DNA of 64,000 nucleotides from an uncultured bacterium (GTDB taxonomy: Bacteria; CSSED10-310; CAZUFC01): positions 32,001 to 96,000 of the forward strand of contig CAZUFC010000004.1 of NCBI GenBank assembly GCA_964619725.1, in the 5' to 3' direction. The notes below the pieces were generated by a model, which saw nothing but the letters and a program-made list of their open reading frames with translations, was not told the origin of the DNA and did not search any database. Of this stretch, positions 2,403 to 20,682 are shown one piece after another (the first letter of the stretch is position 1; every line of letters starts with the position of its first letter). Position numbers and translations under genes: made by a program.

Positions 2403-4181
2403 TCATTCGAAGTTTTCTTCGAGTAAAGCAAGATTGTGTGCGGCCGATTCATGAGAGGGATTGATGGATAGGCAGAGCTTATAATGCCGGCGTGCTTTAT
2501 CGAGTTTTCCCAAAACTTCAAGCGCTGTGGCAAGATTATAATGCGCTTGCTGTTTTGTTTCTGGAGGCGGCTCCGCTGCAAGTATTTCCGAAAAGACCTC
2601 TGCTGCTTTAGAATACAGGCCTTCCTGATAATATAGAGTGCCGAGAAGTTGCCGTTCATCGAAAAGATAGCGGTCGCAATCCACGGCATCCTGATATTTC
2701 CTTATTGCTTCGCCGGTTATTCCTTTAAACTGGTAATAACGAGCAAGATTGTAATGCCCCAGGTAACTCGCCGGTTCCATTTCAATGGCTGCTTCATACT
2801 CTCTTTTTGCTTTCTCCCATTCTCCAATCTCTTCATATTCCAAGCCCAGGTTGTTATGAGCCAGGTAAGTATCAGAACATTCAGCCGTATTTTTCCAAAA
2901 CACATAAGGGGTAATCCATACCTGGCTTCGCTGATGAGTCTGCCAGGCAAAAAGTACAATAAGACTGAGAAAAATGATGTCTGGCAAATATCGAGCATAG
3001 CTGATCTTCAGATGACTTCGACTCCTTTGCCTGAGTTTATCGTAAGCTGTTGCAAGCAGCATAACGTAACCTGCAGAAGGCATAAAAAGTCTCTGGTCTG
3101 CCAGGGGTCTTATCTCGAAAAATTTCACATTTGAGATGGGAAAAATCGACAGCGCGAGCCAGCCGATCGAGAAAGCCGTTAACTTGAAATTTTTTTTCAA
3201 TGCAAAAAGGAAGGCCAGGCAACTGAGGAAAAGGAAAATGAGAGTAATGAATGTCCCCGAATCAATCACGAAATATTCCGGAGGTAAAGGATAAAGAGCG
3301 CACAAGCGAAAGGGAAAAATGATCTTGCGGAGGTAAAAAATCAAAGTATTTAAAATCAAGGCGATATGTGCTCCAGGAAGCAGATCGCCTTCCCAGGACG
3401 CGTGATTGAAAACTTTTTGGGAAATTAACTCTGACCACAGAAAGAATAGACCAATAGCGACAATCCAAAAAGGCAGAGACAAAATTAAAGCTTTTTTTCG
3501 GAAGTGTTTTTCCGGAAAAATTAAAGCATAGAGAACGATTAAAGGGGGCAGACTTATAGCTGTGGCTTTGGCTGCAAAAGAGAATATATAGGCGGCGATA
3601 CCGAGCGCCCAAAGGGAGAATCGGCTGATAAAAAAATAAAGGAGAGAATTATGGCTGCATCCTCTTGTTTTTTTCTCATATCCGGGAGCTGAAGATTTTT
3701 TTAGAAGATTTATATAGGTAATAAAGGCGATAAGCATAAAAATGAAACAGATCATATTGCTGCGGTTTTTTATCCATGCAACTGTTTCGACATTCAGGGG
3801 ATAAAGAGCGAACAACAGAACGGCCGGAAAAGCTTTTTTGGCATTCCCCATTATAATCGAAAGAAATTTGAAAAGCAGGATCAGGTTAATAACGAACAAA
3901 ATGTTGTTCGTCAAGTGATATCCGAAAGGGTTCAATTTCCAGATGGAATAATCAAGAGCAAAGCTGAAGTCCAGGACGGGTCTGTAGTCCCAGCGCATGT
4001 ACGAATTTATTTTCAGCCATTCGAACGGCTGCAAATAATGAAAGGCGTTTAACAAATTATCCATATGCTCTGGGACTTTTTTAACGATCATGAAATGATC
4101 ATCCCAAATGAATTGTCCTGACAGAAGGGAATCATAGATCAGAAGAGCTGTCACTGCTATGTAAATCGACTTTCTCAGCAT
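2403..4181 (-). CDS. TMTC-like GT-C membrane glycosyltransferase with C-terminal TPR repeats
   Basis: FIWDDH acidic loop after TM1, YRP, YHLTN, ETVAWIKNRS and ADQRLFMPS motifs; many TM helices; TPR repeats (AHNNLG, GHYNLA, AHYNLA, AHNLA). Confidence 0.85.
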   Translation of the reverse strand: MLRKSIYIAVTALLIYDSLLSGQFIWDDHFMIVKKVPEHMDNLLNAFHYLQPFEWLKINSYMRWDYRPVLDFSFALDYSIWKLNPFGYHLTNNILFVINLILLFKFLSIIMGNAKKAFPAVLLFALYPLNVETVAWIKNRSNMICFIFMLIAFITYINLLKKSSAPGYEKKTRGCSHNSLLYFFISRFSLWALGIAAYIFSFAAKATAISLPPLIVLYALIFPEKHFRKKALILSLPFWIVAIGLFFLWSELISQKVFNHASWEGDLLPGAHIALILNTLIFYLRKIIFPFRLCALYPLPPEYFVIDSGTFITLIFLFLSCLAFLFALKKNFKLTAFSIGWLALSIFPISNVKFFEIRPLADQRLFMPSAGYVMLLATAYDKLRQRSRSHLKISYARYLPDIIFLSLIVLFAWQTHQRSQVWITPYVFWKNTAECSDTYLAHNNLGLEYEEIGEWEKAKREYEAAIEMEPASYLGHYNLARYYQFKGITGEAIRKYQDAVDCDRYLFDERQLLGTLYYQEGLYSKAAEVFSEILAAEPPPETKQQAHYNLATALEVLGKLDKARRHYKLCLSINPSHESAAHNLALLEENFE

Positions 4182-4210
4182 AATCAGTCAACCTTGCATC
4201 ACAGCATGTT

Positions 4211-4239
4211 ATTATGGTTCAAAACGGAACCGAGATCAA
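4211..4239 (-). promoter_or_regulatory. Putative sigma70 promoter for the TMTC-like gene
   Basis: TTGATC-N17-CATAAT on the minus strand. Confidence 0.45.
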
Positions 4240-4250
4240 GCCGGAGCTTT

Positions 4251-4267
4251 TTTCAATAATATTGAAA
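4251..4267. promoter_or_regulatory. Perfect 8-1-8 palindrome between divergent promoters (candidate operator)
   Basis: TTTCAATA-A-TATTGAAA. Confidence 0.4.
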
Positions 4268-4271
4268 TAAT

Positions 4272-4299
4272 TTGACTTGACTACCGATATCTCTAATAT
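4272..4299 (+). promoter_or_regulatory. Putative sigma70 promoter of the radical SAM operon
   Basis: TTGACT-N16-TAATAT. Confidence 0.4.
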
Positions 4300-4425
4300 T
4301 TAGATAGTGAGAGTCCAGACTTGAAAGCAGAAGCTCGGACGATCACAGAATCGTTTGATCCAGAACAGCGCAAACGAGCGCAGGCTGCTCACGGAAATCT
4401 GGAGAGAAAAAAGGATCATTCATAA

Positions 4426-5925
4426 ATGAGATTAGGTTTAGTTTTTAATCCTTTCACGTACAAAATCCATGAAGAAAACTTGAGGATAGTTCAGAAATAT
4501 TTCGGACTGTTTCCTCCTTTAAGTCTTTGTTGGGCTGCGGGAATAGCCGAAAGCGCCGGTCACGAGGTGGAACTGATTGATGCAAGGACCCTGAGACTAA
4601 CCAAGGAAGAAGCTCTGGAAAGATTGAAGGAGTTTAAACCGGACCTGATCGGCATGATGATGACGACTTATATGTTTCGAGAAACTCTGGAGTGGCTGGA
4701 CTATTTTAAGAAGGAACTGAATGTCGAGACCGTAGTCGGAGGATATAATCTTCGCGTTTATCCGAAAGAGTCGGTAACTCCGCCGGAAGTAGATTACGGA
4801 GTGTATTATTCGGCTTTGAAGACTTTACCGGCCTTGATGAGTGAACTGGAGGGAGATCGTCGTTTTTCCGAGGTGCCTGGATTGGTTTATAAAGAAAAAG
4901 AAGACATTAAACTCAATCCTGGGCCGAATCCTCCTGAGAAATTTACGGATTATCCGTTTCCGGCCAGACATTTGTTGCCCAATGAGTTATATGCTGAGTT
5001 CCCGACTGAGAGGAAAAATTTTACAGTGATGGTTACAAGCAAGGGGTGTCCGTATCAATGTCGTTTCTGTGAAGCGGGGAGAACGCCGCATGATCCTCGA
5101 AGACCGGATCAGATACTCGCGGAAATCAAGGAGTGTTACGAGAGGTACGGAATTCGTGAGATCGATATATTCGATTACGAGTTTGCCGTCGATAATGATC
5201 GAGTCAGGGCTATCTGCGAGGGCATCATAAGAGAGGGACTCGATATTATCTGGGCTTGTCGGACCAGAATCGATTCGGTTAATCCTGAGATACTTGAAGT
5301 AATGAAAAAATCCGGTTGCTCAAGAATTTATTATGGAATTGAAAGCGGAGACCAGGCATTTCTTGACCGAATGAGCAAGGGGATAACTGTCGAGGAAATT
5401 AAGAAAACCATACGTAACACCCGGGATGTAGGAATTCGTCCGCTTGGATTCTTTTTGGTCGGTTCTGAAGGCGAAACGATATCTTCCATCAAACGAACCA
5501 TTAAATTCGCGAAATCGTTGAATCTGGATTATGTTCAGTTTTCTAAGACAACAGCCAAACCTCTCACACGGTTATGGACGGAACTGACTGAGCAAACGGG
5601 CTTCGATTATTGGAGAGAGTATATTCTGGGAAACGTCGAAGAACAGGAATTGCCGAGGCCATGGACTGAGCTGACGAATGATCAAATCGATTTTTGGACC
5701 AGGAAAGCATATATCAAATTTCACGCTCGTTTCCGCTTTCTGCTGAGGTCGACGTTTAAAGTAAGGTCCTTTAAGGAATTTCGGAGAAAATTCCTGGCGT
5801 TTGTTGATATGGTCTTTTTTCAGGAAAAAAGATCGAAAAAGGCCAGAAAATTCGTCGCCTATCATGATCATGCAGGGAAACTTTGGTGGTATCGCAAAAT
5901 CTCAAAATGGAGTCTGCCGTTTTAG
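4426..5925 (+). CDS. Cobalamin-binding radical SAM enzyme #1
   Basis: N-terminal B12-binding domain (FPPLSL, KPDLIG, VVGG), SKGCPYQCRFC CxxxCxxC motif, YGIESG. Confidence 0.9.
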   Translation: MRLGLVFNPFTYKIHEENLRIVQKYFGLFPPLSLCWAAGIAESAGHEVELIDARTLRLTKEEALERLKEFKPDLIGMMMTTYMFRETLEWLDYFKKELNVETVVGGYNLRVYPKESVTPPEVDYGVYYSALKTLPALMSELEGDRRFSEVPGLVYKEKEDIKLNPGPNPPEKFTDYPFPARHLLPNELYAEFPTERKNFTVMVTSKGCPYQCRFCEAGRTPHDPRRPDQILAEIKECYERYGIREIDIFDYEFAVDNDRVRAICEGIIREGLDIIWACRTRIDSVNPEILEVMKKSGCSRIYYGIESGDQAFLDRMSKGITVEEIKKTIRNTRDVGIRPLGFFLVGSEGETISSIKRTIKFAKSLNLDYVQFSKTTAKPLTRLWTELTEQTGFDYWREYILGNVEEQELPRPWTELTNDQIDFWTRKAYIKFHARFRFLLRSTFKVRSFKEFRRKFLAFVDMVFFQEKRSKKARKFVAYHDHAGKLWWYRKISKWSLPF

Positions 5926-5959
5926 ACTGCAAATATCTGTCCGGAGCTTGCCGTAAGCG

Positions 5960-7474
5960 ATGAAGGTCTTGTTCGTCCATCAAGGTCGAGAGAATTTAGG
6001 CATTGAGTATCTTTCTTCGTATCTGAAAAATCGGGGAATTGAGACATATCTCGCATACGATCCGGGTTTATTCGGCGTCAATGATAATTTATTTTATATT
6101 CCCCGTCTCGAAAAATTATTTTCTGACGAACGAATTATCTTGGAAAGAATCGAAAAGATCGGTCCCGACTGGATTGCCTTTTCCGTTTATACTAATACTT
6201 ATCAATGGTGTGTGCGGCTGGCGGGAACAATCAGGAAATCCTATCCGGGAATTCCGATAATATTCGGAGGCATTCATCCTACTCTGACGACGGAAAAGGT
6301 CCTGGAACAGGATTCTGTTGATTTCGCAGTCGTCGGCGAGGGAGAAGAGTGTCTCTATGAATTAATTACTGAAAAGAATCAGGAGAATTATCGATTCATA
6401 GAGAATTTAGCTTACAGAAAAAACGGAAAAATCATTATGAATCCGGTCAGGCCCCCTGTTGCCGAGCTTGATGAATTGCCCTTGCCGGATAAAAAACTGT
6501 TTGAGGAGCACTTTCCCATCAAGGAGGATTATCTTATCCTGTCCTCCAGGGGCTGCGTTTTTAACTGTTCTTATTGTTGCGAAAGTTACTGGAACCGGCT
6601 CTATAATCGCCGTTATTTTCGAAGAAGAAACGTTGAATCGATTTTGGATGAGCTTAAGATAATGAAGAAAAGATACGGATTTCGGGAAGTTATGTTCAAT
6701 GATTCGATTTTTTTTACGGACGAAAAGCGATTGGAACGCCTTATGTATGAATACGCTGAAGAAATCGGAGTAAAATTCAGATGTTTTGGCGAGTTTTGTT
6801 TTATGACTCCTCGCATAGCGCAATTATTAAAGCTGGGGGGATGCTACTCCGTCGAATTCGGATTACAGACTTTAAACGAGAAGATCAGGAAAGAAACGCT
6901 GAACAGAACAGACAGGATAGATCAGGTCCGTAAGGCATTAGAATGCCTGGATGCGGTCGGCATAAGATATGACGTCGACTATATCTTTGGCCTGCCCGGA
7001 GAGAGCGAATCGGATCATCGGCGCGCCGCCTTTTTCTTTAATTGTCTGAATTATTTAAACAGGGTGAAGCCTCATAATTTATCGTATTTCCCCTCACTGA
7101 AGATCATTGATATTGCGAAAGAGATGAATATTCTCAGCGACCGGGATATTGAGAGCATAAATCAGGGATTGATCGGTGATTTCTTCCATGAAATGTCCAG
7201 TCAAAACGAGGAGATGCGAAAAACAAACGATAATTATCGCACCTTGTTTAAATTTATTCCTCTGTTAAAAAGGAAACATCTTGATCGGTTGCTCAACTCA
7301 AGCATGATGGAAAAACTGCATGCGACGCCGTCATTTGTCATTTTACTTTTACAGGTTTTGACGGCAATTCGGGGAAGAGATTATCGTTATATCGTGTACC
7401 TTAAAACGTATCCGTTCAGGGTTTTAAGAGCTGTTAAAAATTTATTGAGTTTAAGAAAATATGACGGAAAATAA
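5960..7474 (+). CDS. Cobalamin-binding radical SAM enzyme #2
   Basis: LGIEYLSSYL, IFGGIHPT, VGEGE, SRGCVFNCSYC, IFGLPGE. Confidence 0.9.
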   Translation: MKVLFVHQGRENLGIEYLSSYLKNRGIETYLAYDPGLFGVNDNLFYIPRLEKLFSDERIILERIEKIGPDWIAFSVYTNTYQWCVRLAGTIRKSYPGIPIIFGGIHPTLTTEKVLEQDSVDFAVVGEGEECLYELITEKNQENYRFIENLAYRKNGKIIMNPVRPPVAELDELPLPDKKLFEEHFPIKEDYLILSSRGCVFNCSYCCESYWNRLYNRRYFRRRNVESILDELKIMKKRYGFREVMFNDSIFFTDEKRLERLMYEYAEEIGVKFRCFGEFCFMTPRIAQLLKLGGCYSVEFGLQTLNEKIRKETLNRTDRIDQVRKALECLDAVGIRYDVDYIFGLPGESESDHRRAAFFFNCLNYLNRVKPHNLSYFPSLKIIDIAKEMNILSDRDIESINQGLIGDFFHEMSSQNEEMRKTNDNYRTLFKFIPLLKRKHLDRLLNSSMMEKLHATPSFVILLLQVLTAIRGRDYRYIVYLKTYPFRVLRAVKNLLSLRKYDGK

Positions 7475-8402
7475 GGAAAAAAAAGCGACGAAGGAGTCAA
7501 AAACTCTGCTGAAGTGGGTTATGGGTTGGATACTGACGGTGACTTTCGTCGTCGTTTTGTTTTATAAGATACCTTTCGCCGATACGTGGAAAACCGCCAA
7601 ATCTGCCGATCCGCTTATTTTACTGGCAGCAGCGGCGATTTCACTTTTCGGGAATCTATTCGGAGCGATAGAAAAATTCCGTCGGCTCGTGGAGGCGTTC
7701 GGGGGATCGATGAGATTCCGGGAAACGTTCAAACTGAAAATGGGACTTATACCCTTGGACAGCATAATGCCGATGAAATCGGGAAAGCTATTTCTGGCCT
7801 TATACTTGAAAAAAGAGAAAGGCATGGCTTTATATCTGGGTGGGCTCATTCTGCTGACGAGTGTGGGATTGAGTTATTCAAGTCTTTTTTTGTTGAGTCT
7901 GCCGGGCTGGCTGATATTACATGGAGGATTAATAACCATAACGGGAACCGCTGTTCTGTTTTTTTCTGATTCTTCATTATTCGGGAAACTGGCGACTCAA
8001 ATAGAAAATATAAAAAAGGGGTTCTTTTTTGCAGGATGGAAACTCAGGTTGATCAAGCTGGGAAGCGTTTCCTTATTATTTGAGACATGCAAAGTATTGA
8101 TGAGTTACGCTGTTCTAACTTCCGTAGGCATTGAAATCGGACCGGGAACAGCCCTGACGGTTCTGCCGGTGAGCGTACTCGCCTCTATGCTTCCTCTGAC
8201 GGCATTGGGCATTGGATTGCGTGAGTCATCTCTGCTTTTGCTCCTTGCCGGCCAGGGAAACGAAGCGGAAATTCTCGCAGCCGGATTCCTGATATCTTTT
8301 ATAGATAGAGTATTGCCGTTATTGATCGGAATAATTTTCGTACGGGATGCTGTTCGAACGATCATTCCTCAGAATAAAGCGAACGAGAACCCTGCCCGAT
8401 GA
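7461..8402 (+). CDS. Lysylphosphatidylglycerol-synthase TM domain / flippase-like membrane protein (divergent)
   Basis: Multi-TM protein with the IMPMKSGK and LPLTALGIGLRE patterns of the LPG_synthase_TM (UPF0104) family. Confidence 0.7.
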   Translation: MTENKEKKATKESKTLLKWVMGWILTVTFVVVLFYKIPFADTWKTAKSADPLILLAAAAISLFGNLFGAIEKFRRLVEAFGGSMRFRETFKLKMGLIPLDSIMPMKSGKLFLALYLKKEKGMALYLGGLILLTSVGLSYSSLFLLSLPGWLILHGGLITITGTAVLFFSDSSLFGKLATQIENIKKGFFFAGWKLRLIKLGSVSLLFETCKVLMSYAVLTSVGIEIGPGTALTVLPVSVLASMLPLTALGIGLRESSLLLLLAGQGNEAEILAAGFLISFIDRVLPLLIGIIFVRDAVRTIIPQNKANENPAR

Positions 8403-8453
8403 CTAAAAATTTCAGTTCGGGAAATAATATTAATGCTGTGGGGAGCATTGAAG

Positions 8454-9515
8454 ATGATCGATTATGAAAGCCGAAGCGCTGAAACCGTTAATTTCCTTAA
8501 AACGATTTATTTTGACTATCCAAAATGGGTTCCCTGCCGGGTGGGATTAATGCCGGCGACCTGGATGAAGCGCCGGGAAAAATTGGAAGACCTGGTCTTA
8601 AAACATCCTCGGCTTTTTCCGGAATACATTAAAGGAAGCAGGGATTTTGACTATATTTATAATCCTCTTTACGAATCAGGAACTCATGTAGACTGCTGGG
8701 GAGTAGTCTGGAAAAATATTTCCCGGGGATTGGACAGTATTCCGGTCAGTCATCCTCTGGAAGATTGGTCCGATTTCGATCATTATATTCCTCCTGATCC
8801 CTTGAAGGACGACATGTTCGGACCGCGGGACTGGAACAAAATTGAACAGGAATTAAAAGAAAAGAAGAAAAAGGGAGGGCTGGCCGTTGGTCGGGAGCTT
8901 CCTCACGGATTCATGTTCATGAAGCTTTATTATCTGAGAGGTTTTGAAAATTTAATGCTGGATATGGCGACGGGAGAGCCGCTATTGGACAGTCTTATTT
9001 CAATGGTTGAGGACTACAATTCGGCTGTGATAGAAAAGCTGCTGAATCTCGGCGCGGAATATATGCATTTCGGCGACGACCTCGGTATGCAACGCTCATT
9101 GCCCATCAGTCCGGCCATGTGGAGGCAATACCTCAAACCTGCTTATGATCGCATGTTCAGGCCGTGTAGAGAAGCGCAAGTCCCTATATATTTTCATTCA
9201 GATGGTCATATCCTGGAAATCATCCAGGATTTGATCGACGTCGGCGTAACAATAGTAAATCCTCAAAGCGGAGCAAACGGAATGGATAATCTGGCAAAAA
9301 TCGTCAAAGGTAAAGCGGCTGTTGATCTTGACCTGGACAGACAAATCTTTCCTTTTGCATCGCCTGATAAAATCAGAGAGCATATCCGCCAAGCTTATGA
9401 AAAATTTTACATGCCTGAAGGCGGCTTCATGTTGTATGCAGAATGCGAACCTGATGTTCCGCTTGAAAATATCCAGGCGATATGCGTAGAGTTTGAGGAA
9501 ATTATGTCGGCTTGA
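8454..9515 (+). CDS. Uroporphyrinogen decarboxylase (URO-D)/MtaA-CmuA superfamily protein
   Basis: DCWGVVW, HPLEDW, LRGFENLMLD, FGDDLG, HSDG, ECEPDVPLENI. GGGAG RBS precedes ATG 8454. Confidence 0.85.
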   Translation: MIDYESRSAETVNFLKTIYFDYPKWVPCRVGLMPATWMKRREKLEDLVLKHPRLFPEYIKGSRDFDYIYNPLYESGTHVDCWGVVWKNISRGLDSIPVSHPLEDWSDFDHYIPPDPLKDDMFGPRDWNKIEQELKEKKKKGGLAVGRELPHGFMFMKLYYLRGFENLMLDMATGEPLLDSLISMVEDYNSAVIEKLLNLGAEYMHFGDDLGMQRSLPISPAMWRQYLKPAYDRMFRPCREAQVPIYFHSDGHILEIIQDLIDVGVTIVNPQSGANGMDNLAKIVKGKAAVDLDLDRQIFPFASPDKIREHIRQAYEKFYMPEGGFMLYAECEPDVPLENIQAICVEFEEIMSA

Positions 9516-9806
9516 CGGGCGCAGCGCTTTTATGATCTGAATCAGAATAATTCCTTCTGCGAAACGCTGAGGCTCTCCACAGTCACTTCTTCGATTGGAA
9601 TAATGACCAACCTGCCGCCTGAAACTTCCCGGTTTTATGCTCAGAATTAACGATTGATCCGGATAAACGGGAGACTGCTGAATTACGGACAGAATCAAGA
9701 GAATAAACGACGGTCTTTCGCGGGTTCGGGCCCAGAACCAGGCGCTTTTTTCTTTCAATTGTCTGGTGATTCCTTTAATATTAACGGCTGGAGAATTCCG
9801 ATCGTC

Positions 9807-11765
9807 ATGGATGAACACTTTCAGAAAAATAAATCGATTCAGAAAAAACACATACCTTTGGGAGCAATTGACGTTTTTCCGGCCCTGATTTTAATCGTCG
9901 CAGCTTTCCTGGTTCACTGGGGAACCCTGAAAGCAGGATTCATAAGTGATGATTTCGTGTTGCTTTCCATGACGGATAGGGCTGATTCCGTTTTTTCATT
10001 TTTTCACACAAATTGGTTATTGGAGCAGCATTCCGGCGGTTTTTATCGACCGATGGTAATGGTCTTGTGGAAGATAGACAGGATGATGTGGGGATTCAAT
10101 CCTCTGGGTTATCATTTCACGAATATTCTTTTGCACGCTATCACCGTTATGCTGATTTTTTTCCTTACTTTCGCACTTGTCGGCCGAAGAAGTACGGCAT
10201 TCTTCTGTTCATTGTTTTTTTGCGTCCATCCTGTTCATAGTGAAGCTATCGCATGGCTAAGCGGGAGAACGGATTTATGCTGCGCGGTTTTCTTTTTTTC
10301 GGCGTTATTGTTTTATGTCGTTTATCTGAAATATTCCAGGCGCGTGCTGTGGTATTTGCTGAGTCTACTAATGTTCATTTTTTCTTTGCTGTCAAAGGAA
10401 ATGGCCTTTACCTTGCCTGTAGCGGCTATCATCCTGGATTTTTTAATTAAAAGTAAACCATTGAAAGGCAACAAGTCTCCAAGAAGCGCCTTCGTATTCA
10501 GAACCGTTCCTTTTTTTATTATTTTGGGAGTAGTCGTTTACATCAGGTACAGAATACTTGGAGGTATCGGCGGGTATGGGGAATCAAAACATTTTCGATT
10601 CGATTTAATAATTTTCAATTATTTTAAGCATTATTTCAATTGGATGCTGACTCCATTTCGATTCATCACGCTGGAAAGAAGTCATCACGACATCGTAGCC
10701 TGGGGAACCCTGGCCGTATTGGCTTTGGGGTTATTGAAGAGGCAATTGAGAACAGGAATTTTAATTTTCGTCGTAACGCTATTACCTGTTTTGAATTTAT
10801 GCCGGCCGCAATATCTTTACATACCGTCCTGGGGACTGTTGCTTGTTTTGTCTGTTCTGATATTCTCCGGCCGAAGAGGTTGGACGAATACGTTTTTTCG
10901 GCTGCTTCTGATTGTCATTCTGGTCCTTTTCTGGACGGTGGAAGTCCGTTATCGAAACCGGGAATGGGTTAGAACAGGAGGCGTGGGTTTGGGTGTAAGA
11001 GATATTATGACCAATATGCATCCTTTTTTCCCGGATGATTCCGAATTATATTTTAGAAATCTTCCAATAAATACGGCGATACCGATAGGAGTCTTCCAAA
11101 ACGGGTTGCAGGAAGCTGTGCGTATGTGGTATGGAAATGGGACGCTGACGGCAAAGCATGTTTCTGATTTCAGGAGCTACGCTGGGGAGCTGGAAAATGA
11201 AGGTAAAAGATACTTTTTCCATATGGATCGGGGATTTTTTTATGATATGACGGACGCCGTGCGTTCGAAGGGAAATGAGACGGTTATTATAAAAGAAGGT
11301 GAGTCGATTACTCTGGATTATCTTCACAAGAAGGAAAGCATTCGATTTAACGAACCGGTCAGGGCTTATGAAATGGAGTTGTGGTCCCTTCTGGCCGACG
11401 GCGCCGACATGGAAAACGGCAGCAAGGCAGGGGAAATTGAATTGAAAAATAATGATGATACGTTGAAAACGTTGTCTTTACGGGCCGGCATAGAGACTGC
11501 CGAATGGGCGTATCATCGAGAGGATTTAAAGGACAGGATAGAACACAATTTTGCCGATGCCGTCTCTGCGAGACTGTTAAATGTATTCAGCAGGCCGGTT
11601 CAAATCGAGTATATCTACCGCAGCCGCTTTGAACTTGATCCTGAACAAACGATAACAGGATTGATTTTCCGGTATGCGGGCCCTCCGTCGCAACCGCAAC
11701 GAAAAACTTTAATTCAAATCAGAAAACTGTTGTTTCGTTCAAAACAGAAAGAGGCTCCCTTGTGA
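9807..11765 (+). CDS. TMTC-like/GT39-type GT-C glycosyltransferase with C-terminal extracytoplasmic domain
   Basis: FISDDF, FYRP, YHFTNILLH, HPVHSEAIAWLSGR and SKE motifs. No TPR; the soluble C-terminal domain contains AGIETAEWAY. Start uncertain (ORF open from 9654). Confidence 0.8.
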   Translation: MDEHFQKNKSIQKKHIPLGAIDVFPALILIVAAFLVHWGTLKAGFISDDFVLLSMTDRADSVFSFFHTNWLLEQHSGGFYRPMVMVLWKIDRMMWGFNPLGYHFTNILLHAITVMLIFFLTFALVGRRSTAFFCSLFFCVHPVHSEAIAWLSGRTDLCCAVFFFSALLFYVVYLKYSRRVLWYLLSLLMFIFSLLSKEMAFTLPVAAIILDFLIKSKPLKGNKSPRSAFVFRTVPFFIILGVVVYIRYRILGGIGGYGESKHFRFDLIIFNYFKHYFNWMLTPFRFITLERSHHDIVAWGTLAVLALGLLKRQLRTGILIFVVTLLPVLNLCRPQYLYIPSWGLLLVLSVLIFSGRRGWTNTFFRLLLIVILVLFWTVEVRYRNREWVRTGGVGLGVRDIMTNMHPFFPDDSELYFRNLPINTAIPIGVFQNGLQEAVRMWYGNGTLTAKHVSDFRSYAGELENEGKRYFFHMDRGFFYDMTDAVRSKGNETVIIKEGESITLDYLHKKESIRFNEPVRAYEMELWSLLADGADMENGSKAGEIELKNNDDTLKTLSLRAGIETAEWAYHREDLKDRIEHNFADAVSARLLNVFSRPVQIEYIYRSRFELDPEQTITGLIFRYAGPPSQPQRKTLIQIRKLLFRSKQKEAPL

Positions 11766-14321: not shown

Positions 14322-15082
14322 GAAATATGGAAAACAATCATTACAGCTACGAAATTTACAGAGACCCGACACATGCTGCGGAATTTGAACAGGATCGATT
14401 TGGAGGAAAATTCGGAGAATACATACGTCGGTACGATGAACAGCTTATCTGCAAACTCTTGCCTGATGACCTCAGTGGCTGCAGCATCCTGGACGTCGGC
14501 GCCGGAACGGGAAGGCTTTCCATACCGCTTTCCGGAAAAGGCGCTCATGTTACGGCCCTGGACGCCTCTTCAGCCATGCTCAAAATTGCCGTTCAGAAAA
14601 GCAGGAACAGCAAAAAAATAAATATTGTGGAAGGGGATGCCCATTTCCTTCCCGTCGCTGATTTTGCTTTTGATTACGTCGTTTGCACTCGCTTGCTCAT
14701 GCATGTGATTCACTGGAAGAAGGTAATTTCCGAAGTTTGTCGCGCTGCACGCGTGGGAGTTATCATTGATTTTCCGACAATTTCCAGTTTCGCCGGCACC
14801 GCTCCGCTTGTAAACGGCATAAAAGAATTTTTCGATATCAAAGTTCAGAATTACAGGGTTTTCTCTGTGGCTGACATCTATTACGCCTTTGAAAAACAGA
14901 ATTTTCAGGTGGATAATATGCAACGCGTTTTTCTGCTGCCCTTTTTCGTTCATCGAAAACTGGATAATCCGAAACTTTCCGAAAACATAGAAGCTTTCTT
15001 CAGAAAAATCAGGGCCACCGAATATTTCGGTTCGCCGATGTTGTTGTCTGCTTTCCGAAAAAACAAGAGTGATAAATTATGA
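14318..15082 (+). CDS. Class I SAM-dependent methyltransferase
   Basis: ILDVGAGTGR, LDASSAML, GDAHFLP, FDYVVC. Confidence 0.9.
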   Translation: MRNMENNHYSYEIYRDPTHAAEFEQDRFGGKFGEYIRRYDEQLICKLLPDDLSGCSILDVGAGTGRLSIPLSGKGAHVTALDASSAMLKIAVQKSRNSKKINIVEGDAHFLPVADFAFDYVVCTRLLMHVIHWKKVISEVCRAARVGVIIDFPTISSFAGTAPLVNGIKEFFDIKVQNYRVFSVADIYYAFEKQNFQVDNMQRVFLLPFFVHRKLDNPKLSENIEAFFRKIRATEYFGSPMLLSAFRKNKSDKL

Positions 15083-16257
15083 AAAGGATTTTAATGATCG
15101 CTCCGGAACCTTTTTTTAAAATAAGGGGAACTCCTTTCAGCGTTTTTCATCGATGTCGCGCTTTAACTTCTCTGGGTTATGAAGTTGACCTTATAACTTA
15201 TCATCTTGGTGAAAACGTTGATATGAAAGGATTAAATGTCATCCGGTCGCCCCGGTTCAAATTTATCAAAAACGTCCCCATAGGATTTTCAATTCAGAAA
15301 ATGTTTCTGTGGTGGATATTGCTGGGAATGGCGTATCAGCGATTGAAACAATTTGATTATCTATGCGTTCATACTCACGAAGATGCCGTCTTTATGGGCG
15401 TTGTGCTCCGTAAAATGTTCGGGATAACCCATGTTTACGACATGCATTCCAGCCTGCCCCAGCAATTTGAAAATTATAAAACGACGAGTTCAAAAGCTTT
15501 TCTGAAATTCGCTTATATGATGGAGCGAATGGCTTTAAAAAATTCAGACGCGGTCATTACGATCTGTTCAAGCCTTTTTGAGCATGCAAAATCTGTAAAC
15601 AGGGAGAATTTTAAAGCTTTGATTGAAAATGTATCTTCAACGATCGGATGCAGCGCCGATGATGAACAGGTTAAAAATTTAAAAGAAGAATTGGGCATCA
15701 TAGGGGAAAAAGCGGTCATATATACAGGGACGCTGGAAAACAACCAAGGCATAGATTTGATGATAGATGCCTTTGCTGAAGCCGTCGATTTAATTCCTCC
15801 GGCCAAACTAATCATAGTCGGCGGAGAGCCTGAACAGGCAGAGTTCTACCGCAGATACGCCGAAAAGCGTAATATTGCAAACAAGGTTTTGCTGACCGGT
15901 AAAATGCCCGTTGAAACAATGGCGGTTTTTATGAAAATTGCTGACATCCTGGTTTCTCCACGGTCCATCGGCACTAACACGCCTTTAAAAATTTACACAT
16001 ATCTTGAGGCAGGCAAACCCATCCTCGCGACCAATCTCAAAACCCACACGCAGGTGCTTTCAAAAGATGACTCCTATCTTGCAAAACCGACGGTTGAGGG
16101 ATTAAAGGAAGGACTTGTCCGGCTGATGAATGATGAAAATTTGCGTTTCAAATTGTCGAAAGGAGCGCGAAGCTTATTTGAAAATTCTTACAGCGATGAA
16201 ATGTTCGTCGCTAAAACGAAGAAATTTTATGAAAAGGCGCTAAGTCTTATGAAATAA
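15079..16257 (+). CDS. Glycosyltransferase family 4
   Basis: IYTGTL..NQGIDL, ADILVSPR, PLKIYTYLEAGKPILAT. Confidence 0.9.
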   Translation: MKRILMIAPEPFFKIRGTPFSVFHRCRALTSLGYEVDLITYHLGENVDMKGLNVIRSPRFKFIKNVPIGFSIQKMFLWWILLGMAYQRLKQFDYLCVHTHEDAVFMGVVLRKMFGITHVYDMHSSLPQQFENYKTTSSKAFLKFAYMMERMALKNSDAVITICSSLFEHAKSVNRENFKALIENVSSTIGCSADDEQVKNLKEELGIIGEKAVIYTGTLENNQGIDLMIDAFAEAVDLIPPAKLIIVGGEPEQAEFYRRYAEKRNIANKVLLTGKMPVETMAVFMKIADILVSPRSIGTNTPLKIYTYLEAGKPILATNLKTHTQVLSKDDSYLAKPTVEGLKEGLVRLMNDENLRFKLSKGARSLFENSYSDEMFVAKTKKFYEKALSLMK

Positions 16258-16283
16258 TACCTAATGAAACGAATCAAACTGAT

Positions 16284-17174
16284 ATGGGTGAAAAGATGAA
16301 AAGAAAAACGCAGGTCTCGGCAAAAATTCGTGATGTCCAGCAAACTGAATTGCAGGCCCAAATAATGACCGAGAAAACCCCGGCTTTCAAAAAATATCAG
16401 AAACTAGTTATCGGTAATACGAAACTGGGCTCATTGTTGAAATATGAATTGATCACGCTGCTTTTCGGTAATCTTCCCGGCGCATTAGGCTACATTACCC
16501 GAAGACTTTTTTATCCTTTTTTGTTCGCCTCATGCGGAAAGGGCGTGACATTCGGCCGCAACATGACTATAAGGCATCCCAATAAAATAAAGATCGGCGA
16601 CTGCTGCGTTTTTGATGACTATAGCGTCCTGGATGCCAAGGGCGAATCGAATGCCGGAATAAACATCGGCAACAATGTCCTGATAGCTCGCAATACAGTT
16701 ATATCATGCAAGGGGGGCGACATCACGATCGGGGACAACTCCAATATTTCTCTGAACTGCATGATTCATTCGGAAAGTTCGGTGATACTAGGCCGCAACG
16801 TTTTAATAGCCGCGTATTGTTATATCATCGGCGGCGGCACGCACGATTTCGACCGCACGGATATACCGATCATTCAGCAGGGCAGTACATCCAAGGGGAT
16901 AATCATAGAGGAGAACGTCTGGTTGGCTGCCGGAGTAAAGATTCTGGACGGTTCGAAGATTGGAAAAGATTCGATTATCGGCACGGATTCGGTGGTGAAT
17001 AAGAGGATACCGGATTTTTCCATAGCGCTGGGGTATCCGGCCAAAGTCATAAAAAACCGGCTGAAACACAAGGTTACCCGCAGAGAGCGAGAGGAAACGC
17101 CAAAATCGCAAAGCGATGAGAGACAGAGCGATGAAGGTGATCCTGAAAAGAGTTCAGATGATTCAGCCGAATAA
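16284..17174 (+). CDS. Hexapeptide-repeat (left-handed beta-helix) O/N-acyltransferase
   Basis: Repeated I.IG.N units, IIIEENVWLA, SIIGTDSVV, ALGYPAKVI; acidic C-terminal tail. Confidence 0.88.
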   Translation: MGEKMKRKTQVSAKIRDVQQTELQAQIMTEKTPAFKKYQKLVIGNTKLGSLLKYELITLLFGNLPGALGYITRRLFYPFLFASCGKGVTFGRNMTIRHPNKIKIGDCCVFDDYSVLDAKGESNAGINIGNNVLIARNTVISCKGGDITIGDNSNISLNCMIHSESSVILGRNVLIAAYCYIIGGGTHDFDRTDIPIIQQGSTSKGIIIEENVWLAAGVKILDGSKIGKDSIIGTDSVVNKRIPDFSIALGYPAKVIKNRLKHKVTRREREETPKSQSDERQSDEGDPEKSSDDSAE

Positions 17175-17183
17175 GAGTTAGAT

Positions 17184-18158
17184 ATGAAGTTCAGCGACAG
17201 GCTATTTTTTTTCTTCAAGTTTTTTCTGTCCTTCGGCATCATCGCAGCTTTTTTTCTATGGGGAAGAGTAGACTGGGGAGAAACCTGGCAGGCCATAAGA
17301 AACGTCAATGTGAAGCTTTTGATTCTGGCCGCCTGCTTTCATATCCTTGGCCTTTTATTCAGTTCCATTAGATGGAAGAATCTGTTGGCCGCTCAGGGAT
17401 TACGCTACAATATCACTGAATTGTTTAAGTTTTATCTGGTTGGCGGTTTTTTCAATACTTTTCTGCCGGGGAGGGTCGGCGGAGATATTATGCGTATTCA
17501 TGACGTCAGCAAGAAAAAAGGATCGCATGTAGAACCGACGGCTGTCGTTCTTATCGAGAGAGGATCGGGAGTATTGACTTTGCTTGGATTAGCCGCTTTC
17601 GTCATGATAATGAATTTTGACGTCGGTTTTGACATCGCTCCGTTCCAGAAAAGTTTCTGGATTTCACTATTTTTTCTTTTATTAATCGTCGTTTTTTTCG
17701 TTATGTTATTTCATCCTTCAATGGTGAAAATATTATTGAATTTATTTGAGAAAAAATGGTTGAACAGAATGAAACCCTTTGCCGAAAAATTTTACCGCGC
17801 CGTCGTGATTTACAAAAACAGAAGACTGTATTTATTTAAAGCGTTGGCAGCAGGCGCCGCCCTCCAGGTAAATTACGTGATGCATTACTACGTTATTGGG
17901 CTTGCATTGGGGTTCCAGAGCATCAATCTCGCCTTTTATTTCTTTTTAATACCGGTTAGAGCGGTTCTGTTGATGACCCCGGTTTTCATTAACGGATTCG
18001 GATTACGGGAAGCCATAGACATATTTTTCTTTGAAAAAGCAGGAATATCAGCCGGAAAGGCGATATCATTTTCCTGGGTATCCGTCGCTATGACGATGGT
18101 TTATGGATTGATAGGCGGACTCGTGTACATTTTCAGGAAAGAAGCGAAAAGAATATGA
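17184..18158 (+). CDS. Lysylphosphatidylglycerol-synthase TM domain / flippase-like membrane protein
   Basis: SIRWKNLL, FFNTFLPGRVGGDIMR, IERGSG, PVFINGFGLRE. Confidence 0.88.
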   Translation: MKFSDRLFFFFKFFLSFGIIAAFFLWGRVDWGETWQAIRNVNVKLLILAACFHILGLLFSSIRWKNLLAAQGLRYNITELFKFYLVGGFFNTFLPGRVGGDIMRIHDVSKKKGSHVEPTAVVLIERGSGVLTLLGLAAFVMIMNFDVGFDIAPFQKSFWISLFFLLLIVVFFVMLFHPSMVKILLNLFEKKWLNRMKPFAEKFYRAVVIYKNRRLYLFKALAAGAALQVNYVMHYYVIGLALGFQSINLAFYFFLIPVRAVLLMTPVFINGFGLREAIDIFFFEKAGISAGKAISFSWVSVAMTMVYGLIGGLVYIFRKEAKRI

Positions 18159-19129
18159 TATTGATAACGGGGGCAAGCGGATTTATCGGGAGACATCTGT
18201 CGGAAACTCTGCTGCGATCTGGACATCAGGTGCGGGTTCTTTTGCGAAGGGAAACCGATGAGCATTTTTTTTCAGTGCAACCGACGGAAACAGTCAGGGG
18301 GGATTTAAGAAGCCGCGAAACAATAGACAAGGCTGTATCGGGCGTTGACGTCGTAATACATCTTGCTGCTGTTTTGGGACCGTCTCAGATTCGGGAGAAA
18401 ATCTTCTATGACGTTAACGTCCGGGCAACGGCTGATTTGCTGAAAACAGCACAAAAGTCAGGCGTGAGACAATTTATTTATGGGAGCACGGTCGGCGTTC
18501 TTGGAGACGTCGCCGGAGTCGTTGCGGACGAGTCGGCAGAATGCAGCCCGGAATCTGTTTATGAAAAGACGAAATGCGAGGCTGAATTTATCGTTCGAGA
18601 GGCTCAGAGTCAATCATTCAACATAACTGTAATTCGCCCGGCCTGGGTATACGGACCGGGAGACAGGCGAACCTTCAAGCTGATAAACGCCATTGCATCA
18701 AAGAAATTTATGTTTGTCGGGAAAGCCGGGAACCTGCAGCATCCCGTGTTTATTTCCGACCTTGTAACGGGCATAATGCTCTGTGTGAATAATGAGAGAG
18801 CTGCAGGAGAAATATATCATTTAGGTGGTCCGGAAATTGTAACAGTAAGAAAACTATGCACAACAGCGGCTTCCATCCTGGGAGTATCACTGCCGAGAGT
18901 TTCTCTGCCCTTATTTGCAGCTAAGATACTAGCCCGTTTTTCCGAAAAAATTTTTGATTTAGCTGGAAAAGAAGCGCCGGTAGACCGGGGAAAAGTTGAT
19001 TTTTTCGTCAAAAATCGCGCTTACAGCATAGAAAAGGCGAAAAGAGAACTGTCGTACAATCCGGAAACTTTTCTTGAACAGGGTATGACTGCTGCGATAA
19101 AGTGGTATCGGGAACAATGCTGGTTATGA
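18155..19129 (+). CDS. NAD-dependent epimerase/dehydratase (extended SDR)
   Basis: ITGASGFIG, IHLAA, YEKTK (YxxxK), RPAWVYGPGD. Confidence 0.9.
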   Translation: MILITGASGFIGRHLSETLLRSGHQVRVLLRRETDEHFFSVQPTETVRGDLRSRETIDKAVSGVDVVIHLAAVLGPSQIREKIFYDVNVRATADLLKTAQKSGVRQFIYGSTVGVLGDVAGVVADESAECSPESVYEKTKCEAEFIVREAQSQSFNITVIRPAWVYGPGDRRTFKLINAIASKKFMFVGKAGNLQHPVFISDLVTGIMLCVNNERAAGEIYHLGGPEIVTVRKLCTTAASILGVSLPRVSLPLFAAKILARFSEKIFDLAGKEAPVDRGKVDFFVKNRAYSIEKAKRELSYNPETFLEQGMTAAIKWYREQCWL

Positions 19130-19218
19130 ATGAACCGGTGAGTTGCTTTTTTAGAGGAACGAACGATGGAGTTCTTCAGCGCGTGGTTCTCAGAGGATCA
19201 GGAATGAGGTTAATATAG

Positions 19219-20682
19219 ATGGATATGCTTTTAATAGTACCGCCGGGAGGTTATTACGCGGAGAGGTGGCAAAAAGGCGTGCTGATGCCTCCTTTGGGAA
19301 TCGGTTATGTCGCTGCTGCGCTTGAAAAAGCAGGTTATGAAGCAGGCATTCTGGATGCCCATGTGAAGAAAATGTCCATGAAGGAGATTGCACGATATCT
19401 CGAAAATAATACTCCGAAATGCATAGGGTTGACATTTACGACAGAGACAAGATTTGAGGGATTTCAGACGGCTGCAGAGATCAAGCGAGTCCTGCCTGAT
19501 GTTCCGATTGTTGCAGGCGGACCTCATGTTTCGCTCGCGGCCGCAGACACGCTGGAACATATCCGCGAAATTGACTATGTCGTGGTGGGGGAAGGCGAGC
19601 TCACAGCAGTCGAATTAATGGATGTAATTCTAAAGAATCGAAAACCTGAGACGGTTGACGGCCTGGCTTACAGGCAAGAAGACAGGATTTTGTTTTCAAA
19701 ACCGCGGCAACCTATAAAGAATCTGGACGAAACTCCTTTTCCCGCCAGGCATCTTTATCCCATGAACGATTATAATTTTCAATTCGATGTTCCGGGGCGG
19801 GGTTCGATACCCTTCGGCAACATTATGACCAGCAGAGGTTGCCCATTTCATTGCAACTTCTGCGCCTCGCCCATAATGTGGGGCAAGAGATGCAGGCTTC
19901 GCTCGCCGGATAATATTGTCCGGGAGATTGAAGAAATCGCCGCTTCATATGATGCAAAAGGACTCTGGATATTTGACGATACTTTTAATTCGGTTCCCGA
20001 ACGGGTCGTTAAAATTTGCGATCTTATCATTGAGAGAAAATTAAATCTCTCCTTCTTCTGTGAAGTCCGGGTCGACAAAATGTCCAAACCCCTTTTAGAG
20101 AAAATGAAAGAAGCGGGTTGTTACTGTATCGGTTTCGGAGTCGAATCCGGCTCTCAGCGTATATTGGACGAAGTAATCAGAAAACATCTGGACCTCAAAA
20201 AAGTAGAACAATTGATCGAATGGTGCCTGGAACTCGACGTGAAACCAAATCCCTTCTACATCTTCAGTCACCCTACAGAAACGATGCAGGATGCCCAGCA
20301 AACCATGGACCTTATTCTCAAATATAAAGACAAAGCTCAAGCCAGCATGGCTTTGCTGCATGTTTACCCCGGAACGGCCCTGGAAAAAACCGCTTATGAA
20401 AAAGGCGTTTTGCCCAGAGACTTTTCTTGGACGCACAAAGATCGGAAAGAGGTCAAAACGTTGCCGTCAGCTCAGGGAAACGTCCCTATATTCCAGGATA
20501 AACTTACCTGGGATCAAATCAGCGGCCTCCTGTTCCAGTGGGCTGAACTGCAGAATTATCCCATATGGAGACATATCCCGAAAGTAATAAGAAGCGTTAA
20601 ATCTTTCGATGACTTTAAAAGATATGTGATTATGGGTAAAAATTTTTTGAAAAGGAAATTATCTTCTTCGAAAACGCATTAG
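19219..20682 (+). CDS. Cobalamin-binding radical SAM enzyme #4
   Basis: MPPLGIGYVAA, AGGPHVS, VGEGE, SRGCPFHCNFC, FGVESGS, YPGT. GAGGT RBS. Confidence 0.92.
   Translation: MDMLLIVPPGGYYAERWQKGVLMPPLGIGYVAAALEKAGYEAGILDAHVKKMSMKEIARYLENNTPKCIGLTFTTETRFEGFQTAAEIKRVLPDVPIVAGGPHVSLAAADTLEHIREIDYVVVGEGELTAVELMDVILKNRKPETVDGLAYRQEDRILFSKPRQPIKNLDETPFPARHLYPMNDYNFQFDVPGRGSIPFGNIMTSRGCPFHCNFCASPIMWGKRCRLRSPDNIVREIEEIAASYDAKGLWIFDDTFNSVPERVVKICDLIIERKLNLSFFCEVRVDKMSKPLLEKMKEAGCYCIGFGVESGSQRILDEVIRKHLDLKKVEQLIEWCLELDVKPNPFYIFSHPTETMQDAQQTMDLILKYKDKAQASMALLHVYPGTALEKTAYEKGVLPRDFSWTHKDRKEVKTLPSAQGNVPIFQDKLTWDQISGLLFQWAELQNYPIWRHIPKVIRSVKSFDDFKRYVIMGKNFLKRKLSSSKTH

Follow-up and report, generated by a model that had tools for sequence, protein, structure and literature searches.

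Three separately inherited modules unite cobalamin-type radical SAM enzymes with a GT-C-fold glycosyltransferase-like protein in a CSSED10-310 genome

Bases 32001-96000 of contig C4 from the genome of an uncultured bacterium, a stretch of 64,000 nucleotides referred to here as the window, carry a block of 13 plus-strand genes at window positions 4426-20682. In this block, four cobalamin-type radical S-adenosylmethionine (SAM) enzymes, B12a to B12d, and a fifth radical SAM enzyme with a SPASM domain are encoded among glycosyltransferases, membrane proteins and a methyltransferase (MT); a gene for a membrane protein with tetratricopeptide repeats (TPR) is divergently transcribed at 2403-4181. 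The block consists of three separately inherited modules joined in this genome, and not of one conserved 13-gene pathway. It is best explained as three modules for envelope biosynthesis, fused in this genome alone, which together most likely build, radically tailor and export a membrane-anchored saccharide. An earlier note made from the letters of the window alone (the sequence-only reading) had proposed a single production line, and this did not survive comparison with relatives, where the modules lie on separate contigs and none of the phylum's other 13 genomes has the left module.

The assembly (9.17 Mb in 344 contigs, with estimated completeness of 90.9% and contamination of 6.5%) is one of 14 species genomes of its phylum in the collection, this genome (G000) and 13 others, and its closest named homologues carry the label candidate division CSSED10-310. 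Gene content was taken from a listing of open reading frames (ORFs) together with Pfam and NCBIfam scans. The assembly is sound and the modules are truly joined in this genome. A contig of run X1, which may be the source sample, spans window positions 2000-15466 with no differences, and the junction between the SPASM and MT genes is bridged also by a contig from a second sample, X2.

The left module, comprising B12a, B12b, the membrane protein LPGa and a URO-D-like protein, is seen within the phylum in this genome only. B12a and the URO-D-like gene each occur in one of the 14 genomes, and no B12b orthologue was found in the other 13, the top match there being a paralogue of 34% identity. The best relatives of this module are in other phyla, where B12a orthologues are 63-65% identical.

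The middle module, comprising the GT-C gene, B12c and the SPASM gene, is derived from a phylum-wide radical SAM trio that in the relatives consists of B12c, the SPASM enzyme and a third radical SAM protein of ~348 aa; the best match to this third protein in the present genome (40% identity) is on another contig. Orthologues of B12c are found in 11 of the 13 other genomes at 54-62% identity, and the SPASM gene follows B12c in every orthologous locus where the DNA continues. The GT-C gene is directly upstream of B12c-SPASM in six of these 11 genomes (G001, G002, G003, G006, G009 and G010). A metagenome scan with the single B12c protein returned no relatives, and one with an alignment returned 45 loci, including three true orthologues. 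All three of these, with B12c at 61-64% identity, have the order GT-C-B12c-SPASM; none of the other 42, in which B12c is at most 39% identical, has a GT-C. A DUF374 gene is the divergent neighbour of the trio both with and without the GT-C, and no conserved candidate substrate gene adjoins the trio in the relatives.

The right module (MT, the glycosyltransferase GT4, an acyltransferase, the membrane protein LPGb and a short-chain dehydrogenase/reductase, SDR) keeps its gene order in all five loci fetched, from G001, G002, G003, G008 and G010. Identities between syntenic orthologues are 38-42% for MT, 42-44% for GT4 and 53-62% for the acyltransferase, and LPGb-like genes occur in all 14 genomes of the phylum. 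B12d has orthologues in 11 of the 13 other genomes (46-60% identity); it directly follows the SDR gene in G001 and G002 only, lies 10 kb off in G010, and is on other contigs in G003 and G008.

Three features of these relatives may be recorded in passing. In some of them, though not in others, small genes of the 23S_rRNA_IVP family separate the third radical SAM gene from the SPASM gene (L103:12446-13051, L106:4729-5331 and L227:12198-12908), with more copies nearby on the opposite strand. The B12d orthologues of G001 (C59:81482-82945) and G002 (C1:67494-68957), which are from one genus, each contain a single in-frame TGA that could be a selenocysteine codon, a shared pseudogene lesion or an error. 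Some B12a-like matches from the phylum of G014 (at loci L177, L184, L185, L187 and L189) have open frames of 734-811 aa, against the usual ~480-500, which suggests fusion to an extra domain.

Within the 13-gene run, six of the 12 junctions overlap and the remaining gaps are of 10-292 nt, the largest being the 292 nt at 9515-9807. The GT-C gene overlaps B12c by 4 nt, as does the SPASM gene MT. The CxxxCxxC motif is intact in all five radical SAM proteins, and all four cobalamin-type enzymes carry B12-binding and radical SAM domains above the Pfam cut-offs, the pair that defines class B, with the motif at residues 199-214; identity among the four is just 22-30%. At the density of the whole genome (~59 loci in 9.17 Mb) about 0.1 such genes would be predicted per 16 kb, so that the four observed are far more than chance would give. 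By Pfam, positions 2403-20682 hold no NRPS/PKS, Wzx/Wzy or ABC exporter domains and no protease, leader-peptide-recognition or export genes. No convincing precursor-like short ORF was found in the four gaps examined, where short genes are easily missed. In all these respects (gene content and coordinates, the four intact radical SAM motifs, and the lack of assembly-line, flippase-polymerase, exporter and visible precursor genes) the sequence-only reading agrees with the domain scans. Scans of the stretch for promoters and terminators gave no excess over shuffled sequence (32 against 32.5 and 18 against 21.1, respectively).

Genes of the block and the divergent TPR gene (window positions)
Feature	Position	Strand	Basis
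TPR-bearing GT-C-like membrane protein, 592 aa	2403..4181	-	TPR in Pfam; GT-C by homology; divergent from B12a
B12a, cobalamin-type radical SAM, 499 aa	4426..5925	+	Pfam B12-binding + Radical_SAM; CPYQCRFC at residue 208
B12b, cobalamin-type radical SAM, 504 aa	5960..7474	+	Pfam B12-binding + Radical_SAM; CVFNCSYC at residue 199
LPGa, LPG_synthase_TM membrane protein, 313 aa	7461..8402	+	PF03706 79.5 bits vs 33.4
URO-D-like protein, 360 aa	8433..9515	+	PF01208 46.8 bits, C-terminal half
GT-C fold glycosyltransferase-like protein, 652 aa, beta-rich C-terminal domain	9807..11765	+	AlphaFold/Foldseek
B12c, cobalamin-type radical SAM, 479 aa	11762..13201	+	Pfam B12-binding + Radical_SAM; CPFKCIFC at residue 214
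SPASM-domain radical SAM, 382 aa	13173..14321	+	Radical_SAM 72.8, SPASM 53.7 bits; CNLKCEMC at residue 56
MT, class I SAM methyltransferase, 254 aa	14318..15082	+	Methyltransf_11/25
GT4 glycosyltransferase, 392 aa	15079..16257	+	Glycos_transf_1 + Glyco_transf_4
Hexapeptide-repeat acyltransferase (HEX), 296 aa	16284..17174	+	Hexapep
LPGb, LPG_synthase_TM membrane protein, 324 aa	17184..18158	+	PF03706 111.7 bits vs 33.4
Extended SDR, nucleotide-sugar epimerase/dehydratase type, 324 aa	18155..19129	+	Epimerase 136.6 bits
B12d, cobalamin-type radical SAM, 487 aa	19219..20682	+	Pfam B12-binding + Radical_SAM; CPFHCNFC at residue 208

The 652-aa protein of the middle module has the GT-C fold. Neither it nor the TPR protein has a Pfam match in its membrane part even at E<=10. 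An AlphaFold model of the 652-aa protein on a 40-sequence alignment (pLDDT 88, pTM 0.88) gave 39 Foldseek matches at E<=0.001, of which all the top-ranked are GT-C enzymes: ALG12, EmbB, AglB, STT3, ArnT, PglB, Pmt4, AftD and DPY19. These top matches all use polyprenyl-phosphate-sugar donors. Two acidic residues, Asp48 and Asp49, form a DD pair after the first helix that is invariant in seven of seven orthologues and at least 90% conserved in the 40-sequence alignment; from the model they would lie outside the membrane. The gene is taken to start at ATG 9807, in an ORF that opens at TTG 9654. Full-length relatives are few, only about six among 5.8 billion clusters. Homologues carry PMT_2 (PF13231) or PMT (PF02366), the G004 orthologue reaching 30.2 bits for PMT against a cut-off of 22.7; because the window proteins themselves have no such match, they are distant relatives and not scored members of these families. 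The beta-rich C-terminal domain is nearest to the carbohydrate-binding modules (CBMs) CBM29 (Z 9.5) and CBM8 (Z 9.4) and to BcsB (Z 9.2), in a range of Z 9.5-9.1. Modelled alone it has a moderate pLDDT of 69, and its likeness to a CBM is therefore a hint only.

The TPR protein is 24% identical to the 652-aa protein over 381 aa (E 5e-20) and by this resemblance is a paralogue of the GT-C whose fold was verified. Its repeats are at residues ~440-590; the N-terminal ~400 aa have seven hydrophobic segments, no Pfam match, and a WDDHF motif after the first helix. Of the two GT-C assignments made in the sequence-only reading, the one at 9807-11765 is borne out by a predicted fold, and the other stands by homology only. 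Many TPR-bearing GT-C homologues are annotated by their sources as protein O-mannosyltransferases.

Mixtures of the same kind recur elsewhere. On contig C23 of the same genome (L112:7991-11841) a methyltransferase gene is followed by a gene for a 534-aa GT-C-like protein that overlaps a B12 radical SAM gene by 4 nt, a second GT-C/B12 pair. A cluster on contig C24 (55000-73000; L190:2370-15651, minus strand) encodes a TMEM260-like GT-C, a GT2, two B12 radical SAM enzymes, a sulfatase-family protein, a SPASM enzyme, a small GT2 and an SDR. The first B12 enzyme of this cluster is the closest paralogue of B12c in the genome (36% identity, rank 2 of 54), and in ten related loci the B12 pair keeps the sulfatase-family gene in nine and a GT2 in eight. 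The cluster also holds an AMP-binding enzyme and DUF362, and its sulfatase and SPASM pair resembles a sulfatase with its anaerobic maturase. Outside the phylum, an Elusimicrobia-labelled contig has a tightly packed co-directional run with orthologues of B12a (65%) and B12b (49%), three more B12 radical SAM enzymes, a UbiA prenyltransferase, DUF2079, an LPG_synthase_TM protein and a TPR-bearing GT-C. At locus L080 two B12 radical SAM genes precede a TPR-bearing GT-C and then a GT2.

A scan of genome contigs with the GT-C alignment gave 79 loci of the broad TPR/GT-C family, which are not orthologues and were used as background. Four of these have a B12 radical SAM gene in the locus, three directly upstream of the GT-C and one (L050) ~7 kb away, and one further locus has URO-D-like genes beside the GT-C. 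Two URO-D-like genes, one of them 32% identical to that of the window, flank the start of a TPR-bearing GT-C gene in an Armatimonadota-labelled metagenome-assembled genome (MAG; L012:7422-12025), an arrangement that recalls the adjacency of URO-D-like and GT-C genes in the window. On our reading, the B12 radical SAM enzymes of this lineage are consistently found in glycosyltransferase contexts, with the GT-C as a frequent but exchangeable partner. The family is hugely expanded in the genome, with 66 matches to the B12-binding domain, of which 62 exceed the cut-off; most of the matches lie in ORFs of 430-600 aa. The genes are often clustered, with four on C91 and three each on C36, C95 and C24 (C3 is another example), and the other genomes of the phylum have 13-78 first-look candidates each. 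In the literature covered, which does not extend to most subscription journals, no paper was found that joins a cobalamin radical SAM enzyme with a GT-C, with polyprenyl or undecaprenyl carriers or with LPG_synthase_TM, in keeping with the statement of the sequence-only reading that it knew of no characterised pathway of this form.

No radical SAM protein of the block reaches an NCBIfam cut-off. Scores for HpnJ (TIGR03471, cut-off 577.6 bits) are 235.6 bits for B12c, 156.2 for B12d, 141 for B12a and 98.6 for B12b, and those for BchE (TIGR02026, cut-off 481 bits) are 226.8, 152.3, 143.6 and 86.8 in the same order. The top match of B12c is HpnJ, and that of B12a is BchE with HpnJ a close second; the GT-C-linked B12 radical SAM enzymes match one or other of these two families best. 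B12b has ApyD as its top match (122 bits against 750), and B12d has ApyD (171 bits) and a 'ladder' lipid radical SAM family (158 bits), both below cut-off. AprD4-family scores in NCBIfam are about 100-109 bits against 500. When a profile of the B12c family was compared with the PDB, AprD4, named a radical SAM diol-dehydratase in NCBIfam, came top at 93.5 bits and OxsB reached 75 bits. This comparison with solved structures, together with the matches of the SDR to MoeE5 and other nucleotide-sugar enzymes, leans weakly to sugar chemistry. HpnJ and BchE are both described as non-methylases (PMC9204698; PMC13459092), and the reaction proposed for HpnJ is ring contraction of a glucosamine that is already attached to lipid (PMC9204698; PMC13459092). 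In a published similarity network HpnJ groups with Fom3 and MoeK5 (PMC9204698); the consulted part of that paper gives no sequence rule that separates methylase from non-methylase class B enzymes.

The SPASM domain of the fifth enzyme scores 53.7 bits against a cut-off of 21.5, with cysteines at 311, 329, 367, 370, 371 and 375, and its PDB matches are weak, an anaerobic sulfatase-maturating enzyme being among them. For the Tes/Mss family (NF045702, cut-off 450) it scores 38.3 bits, rank 12 of 16 matches in the genome, where the top match has 74.4 bits and none reaches the cut-off. The top genome match to squalene-hopene cyclase (TIGR01507) has 32.6 bits against 431.1, which makes absence of the cyclase likely but not certain, as the genome is 90.9% complete. 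Two specific assignments were rejected on these scores. A hopanoid role has no cyclase and Hpn scores that are all below cut-off, and a Tes/Mss lipid role has NF045702 scores far under 450 bits. A tetrapyrrole role, raised by BchE-like, URO-D-like and AhbD/NirJ-like matches, has scores far below cut-off and involves a URO-D-like gene that is a genome-specific addition. None of the B12 radical SAM enzymes falls in a family with a known non-glycan substrate, the outcome that the sequence-only reading had named as counting against it, all scores being far below the NCBIfam cut-offs.

The other proteins of the block belong to broad families. Both LPG_synthase_TM proteins pass the PF03706 cut-off. 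For TIGR00374 ('flippase-like', cut-off 43.2 bits), LPGb scores 71.1 bits; LPGa, which has six hydrophobic segments, scores 38.9 and falls short. The URO-D-like protein exceeds the PF01208 cut-off of 23.9 bits over profile positions 151-340 of 346 only, scores 30.4 bits against 235.4 for MtaA/CmuA (TIGR01463), and has no PDB sequence match at E<0.01. Its family is large and uncharacterised, with 1288 homologues at E<=1e-10 and 119 listed relatives at 58-67% identity. GT4 reaches no NCBIfam cut-off and has weak PDB matches to seven GT4-type ('glycosyl transferase group 1') chains at 29-36 bits. The acyltransferase scores 85 bits against 192 for the WcaF family and has 1830 homologues, with relatives of 57-60% identity in several cyanobacteria and CSSED10-310-labelled MAGs. 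The top NCBIfam match of the SDR is HpnA (TIGR03466), at 178.2 bits against 367.65, and its PDB matches include 3wj7 (98.8 bits), a TDP-glucose 4,6-dehydratase (77 bits) and MoeE5 (76.7 bits).

Lipid-carrier glycosylation systems of three components that end in a GT-C include ArnC/ArnD/ArnEF/ArnT, GtrA/GtrB/Gtr-type, CsbB/GtcA/YfhO and the mycobacterial UbiA-DprE-Emb/Aft enzymes. To our knowledge none of these contains a radical SAM enzyme. Like them, the block has a GT-C fold, polytopic candidate translocators and cytoplasmic SDR, acyltransferase and methyltransferase enzymes, and of the related loci the Elusimicrobia-labelled cluster has a UbiA and the C24 cluster a small GT2. Unlike them, the block itself lacks a GT2, UbiA or phosphoglycosyltransferase loading enzyme, its candidate translocators are of the LPG_synthase_TM family and not GtrA or ArnE/F, and it has five radical SAM enzymes. 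It resembles the hopanoid side-chain pathway (HpnH, HpnI, HpnK and HpnJ with HpnA, HpnB and HpnL) in that HpnJ is the top match for B12c and HpnA for the SDR, and HpnL is in the same broad family as the LPG_synthase_TM proteins (PMC12324291, consulted in part). It departs from that pathway in its scores, which are 141-236 bits for HpnJ (cut-off 578) and 178 bits for HpnA (cut-off 368), and in the lack of a squalene-hopene cyclase in the genome, estimated to be 90.9% complete; no HpnL match in NCBIfam is listed at E<=0.01 for the block proteins. With the sugar-acting class B enzymes GenK, Fms7, AprD4, OxsB and, from the moenomycin pathway, MoeK5 it shares domain architecture, the B12c profile being nearest to AprD4 and the SDR matching MoeE5, whereas the aminoglycoside, nucleoside and phosphoglycolipid antibiotic genes of those pathways are missing and the context is one of membrane and envelope genes. 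Like the archaeal and bacterial lipid-modifying sets (Tes/Mss, Gms with Gmm, GrsA/B and Cds), it combines a SPASM and a cobalamin radical SAM enzyme, as in Gms/Gmm; unlike them, its SPASM enzyme scores 38 bits against the Tes cut-off of 450, and the consulted part of PMC13459092 does not report such sets with GT-C partners.

What is observed is the set of genes present, the fold of the GT-C, the intact motifs of the radical SAM enzymes, the patterns of synteny and a continuous assembly. From these we tentatively favour an account in which a membrane-anchored saccharide is radically tailored and then transferred outside the membrane by GT-C enzymes, and we give it somewhat less than even credence. 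GT4, SDR, the acyltransferase and MT would build and modify a sugar carried by a lipid anchor or carrier at the cytoplasmic face. The B12 radical SAM enzymes and the SPASM enzyme would then carry out radical chemistry on the lipid-attached sugar, which might be ring contraction, dehydration, epimerisation or C-methylation; precedents in the literature are HpnJ, Cds (for which head-group ring contraction is proposed, PMC13459092), AprD4 and MoeK5. The LPG_synthase_TM proteins may move the product to the outer leaflet, where the two GT-C proteins, one with a CBM-like domain and one with TPR, would transfer it to an acceptor outside the membrane. A more specific version is rather doubtful: that the trio turns a lipid-linked sugar into a non-canonical one (carbocyclic, branched or deoxygenated, for example), that the GT-C with the CBM-like domain uses the product as its donor, and that the two other modules extend the pathway in this genome.

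A row at 52792-57559 encodes a DegT-type aminotransferase, a GFO/IDH/MocA oxidoreductase, a GT9 heptosyltransferase-like protein and Bac_transf (55997-57559), the last being the sugar-phosphate transferase nearest to the block. This row could be a lipid-carrier glycan initiation set, 32 kb downstream, that supplies the missing first step. On the same contig, 14-20 kb upstream of the window, are a TPR-bearing GT-C (TMEM260-like/PMT_2; L003:11637-13715) and a second DegT-type aminotransferase (L003:17064-18215).

Several observations weigh against tailoring of a saccharide for GT-C transfer. Every relative examined has the three modules on separate contigs, in none are they adjacent, and the case for co-function therefore rests on this one genome. 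The trio stands without an adjacent GT-C in five of the 11 related genomes (G004, G005, G007, G008 and G013), full-length GT-C orthologues are solitary in G004 and on contig C165 of G002, and none of the ten loci related to the C24 cluster has its TMEM260-like GT-C, a gene peculiar to this genome. Of 30 loci with B12a orthologues in another phylum, only one has a GT-C within 1.5 kb, and a conserved unit of B12a with a TPR-bearing GT-C was rejected on this count. The GT-C-linked B12 radical SAM enzymes do not form one clade, as they rank 1, 2, 17 and 18 of 54. When gene positions were randomised, the observed three of 20 GT-C loci with a B12 radical SAM gene within 300 nt were equalled in 10 of 1000 placements, and with more GT-C families the observed four of 32 were equalled in 79 of 1000, which is not significant. 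By Pfam, no enzyme that could load a polyprenyl carrier (GT2, UbiA or phosphoglycosyltransferase) is encoded at 2403-20682. Stand-alone LPG_synthase_TM proteins are not established flippases, and the function of the related HpnL is given as unknown in the consulted part of PMC12324291. The CBM-like Z values of 9.5-9.1 exceed the background of Z 7-8 stated for the tool by a modest margin only. All family scores of the radical SAM enzymes are far below cut-off, and therefore no chemistry can be transferred by homology. The interpretation in the sequence-only reading is upheld in part: the GT-C fold of one of its two proposed GT-C proteins, whose outer domain resembles CBMs, and the recurring link of radical SAM and glycosyltransferase genes stand, and the one conserved pathway does not; its C-methylated or rearranged sugars, their flipping and their attachment to surface proteins or lipids are conjectural. 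Its expectation of conserved GT-C linkage holds for GT-C-B12c-SPASM in six of 11 genomes and in all three metagenome contigs, and breaks down in the other five genomes, for B12a and in the wider placement test. The joint occurrence of B12 radical SAM, LPG_synthase_TM and GT-C genes that it proposed as a check is seen on the Elusimicrobia-labelled contig, against the single locus in 30 for B12a.

A lipid target is a serious rival, because the known chemistry of lipid cores also couples the two enzyme types, SPASM and cobalamin radical SAM, in Gms/Gmm, Tes and GrsA/B (PMC13459092, consulted in part). In this alternative the trio, and perhaps the other B12 enzymes, would alter the hydrocarbon core or head group of the organism's own lipids through C-C coupling, methylation, cyclisation or head-group ring contraction, and the GT-C and LPG_synthase_TM genes would be mere travelling envelope genes. 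It would account for the five of 11 genomes in which the trio has no glycosylation gene, and for the large B12 radical SAM families of the phylum (13-78 first-look candidates per genome). The divergent DUF374 neighbour, presumably related to lipid acyltransferases, is conserved in both forms of the locus, and the top NCBIfam matches of the block include HpnJ, HpnR, the 'ladder' lipid family and HpnA. The HpnJ, HpnA and 'ladder' scores are, however, far below cut-off, no hopene cyclase was found (32.6 bits against 431), and there is no Tes/Mss enzyme in the genome (74 bits at best against 450, and 38 for the SPASM enzyme of the window). The rare GT-C with the CBM-like domain directly adjoins the trio in most of the loci that have it, which a bystander role leaves unexplained, and the nearest paralogue family of B12c keeps GT2 neighbours in eight of ten loci. 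Lipid modification seems to us rather unlikely on balance.

It is also unlikely that there is no single pathway and that the block is a chance string of independent operons, or one under loose co-regulation, with each module having its own product. Separate contigs in all relatives are what such independence would give, as are the differing phyletic patterns (B12a and URO-D-like genes in one of 14 genomes, B12c and B12d in 12, LPGb-like genes in 14), the placing of the 292-nt gap (9515-9807) exactly at a module boundary, and the non-significant wider co-localisation test. The families of the acyltransferase and the URO-D-like protein have many members, widely distributed in settings that lack radical SAM genes, and the genome is crowded, with ~59 B12 radical SAM and ~32 GT-C-like genes. 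Set against this are the 4-nt overlap of the SPASM and MT genes, which belong to two modules, the 13 co-directional genes with six overlaps at 12 junctions, the agreement of the reads, and the recurrence of a mix of GT-C, B12 radical SAM, SPASM, glycosyltransferase and SDR genes at C24 and on the Elusimicrobia-labelled contig. SPASM enzymes typically modify peptides or proteins, and the B12 and SPASM enzymes might instead have a protein or a ribosomal peptide as their target (in the manner of ribosomally synthesised and post-translationally modified peptides, RiPPs) or act as maturases, with the GT-C proteins O-glycosylating proteins. The weak PDB match to an anaerobic sulfatase-maturating enzyme, the SPASM gene that follows a sulfatase-family gene in the C24 cluster, the annotation of TPR-bearing GT-C homologues as protein O-mannosyltransferases and the choice of ApyD, a RiPP radical SAM enzyme, as top NCBIfam match of B12b and B12d would all fit. 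We nevertheless judge this quite improbable: the ApyD scores are 122-171 bits against 750, the gaps hold no precursor-like short ORF, 2403-20682 has no protease, leader-peptide-recognition or export genes by Pfam, and no conserved candidate substrate gene adjoins the trio in relatives.

Class B radical SAM enzymes are among the largest enzyme groups whose substrates are mostly unknown, and this organism alone has ~59 loci. If their link to GT-C and GT2 genes recurs, envelope glycoconjugates would be a large unexplored substrate class in uncultured anaerobes, and surface sugars with unusual carbon skeletons would be predicted. Tailoring of a lipid-linked donor for envelope glycosylation would, if true, be the first case of its kind for radical SAM enzymes. 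The trio is a compact, well-conserved operon of three or four genes, tractable and simpler to express than the 13-gene block, and it would be wrong to treat the long block as a single conserved pathway.

The rest of the window carries genes of other kinds. A biosynthetic-type arginine decarboxylase (22088-24049) adjoins a thiolase gene followed by a small zf-ChsH2 (rubredoxin-like zinc ribbon) gene (24402-25994). Four histidine-kinase genes lie in a row at 32687-38887, two of them encoding GAF and/or PAS domains, and a further kinase is found with a sigma-54-dependent response regulator at 43031-45840.

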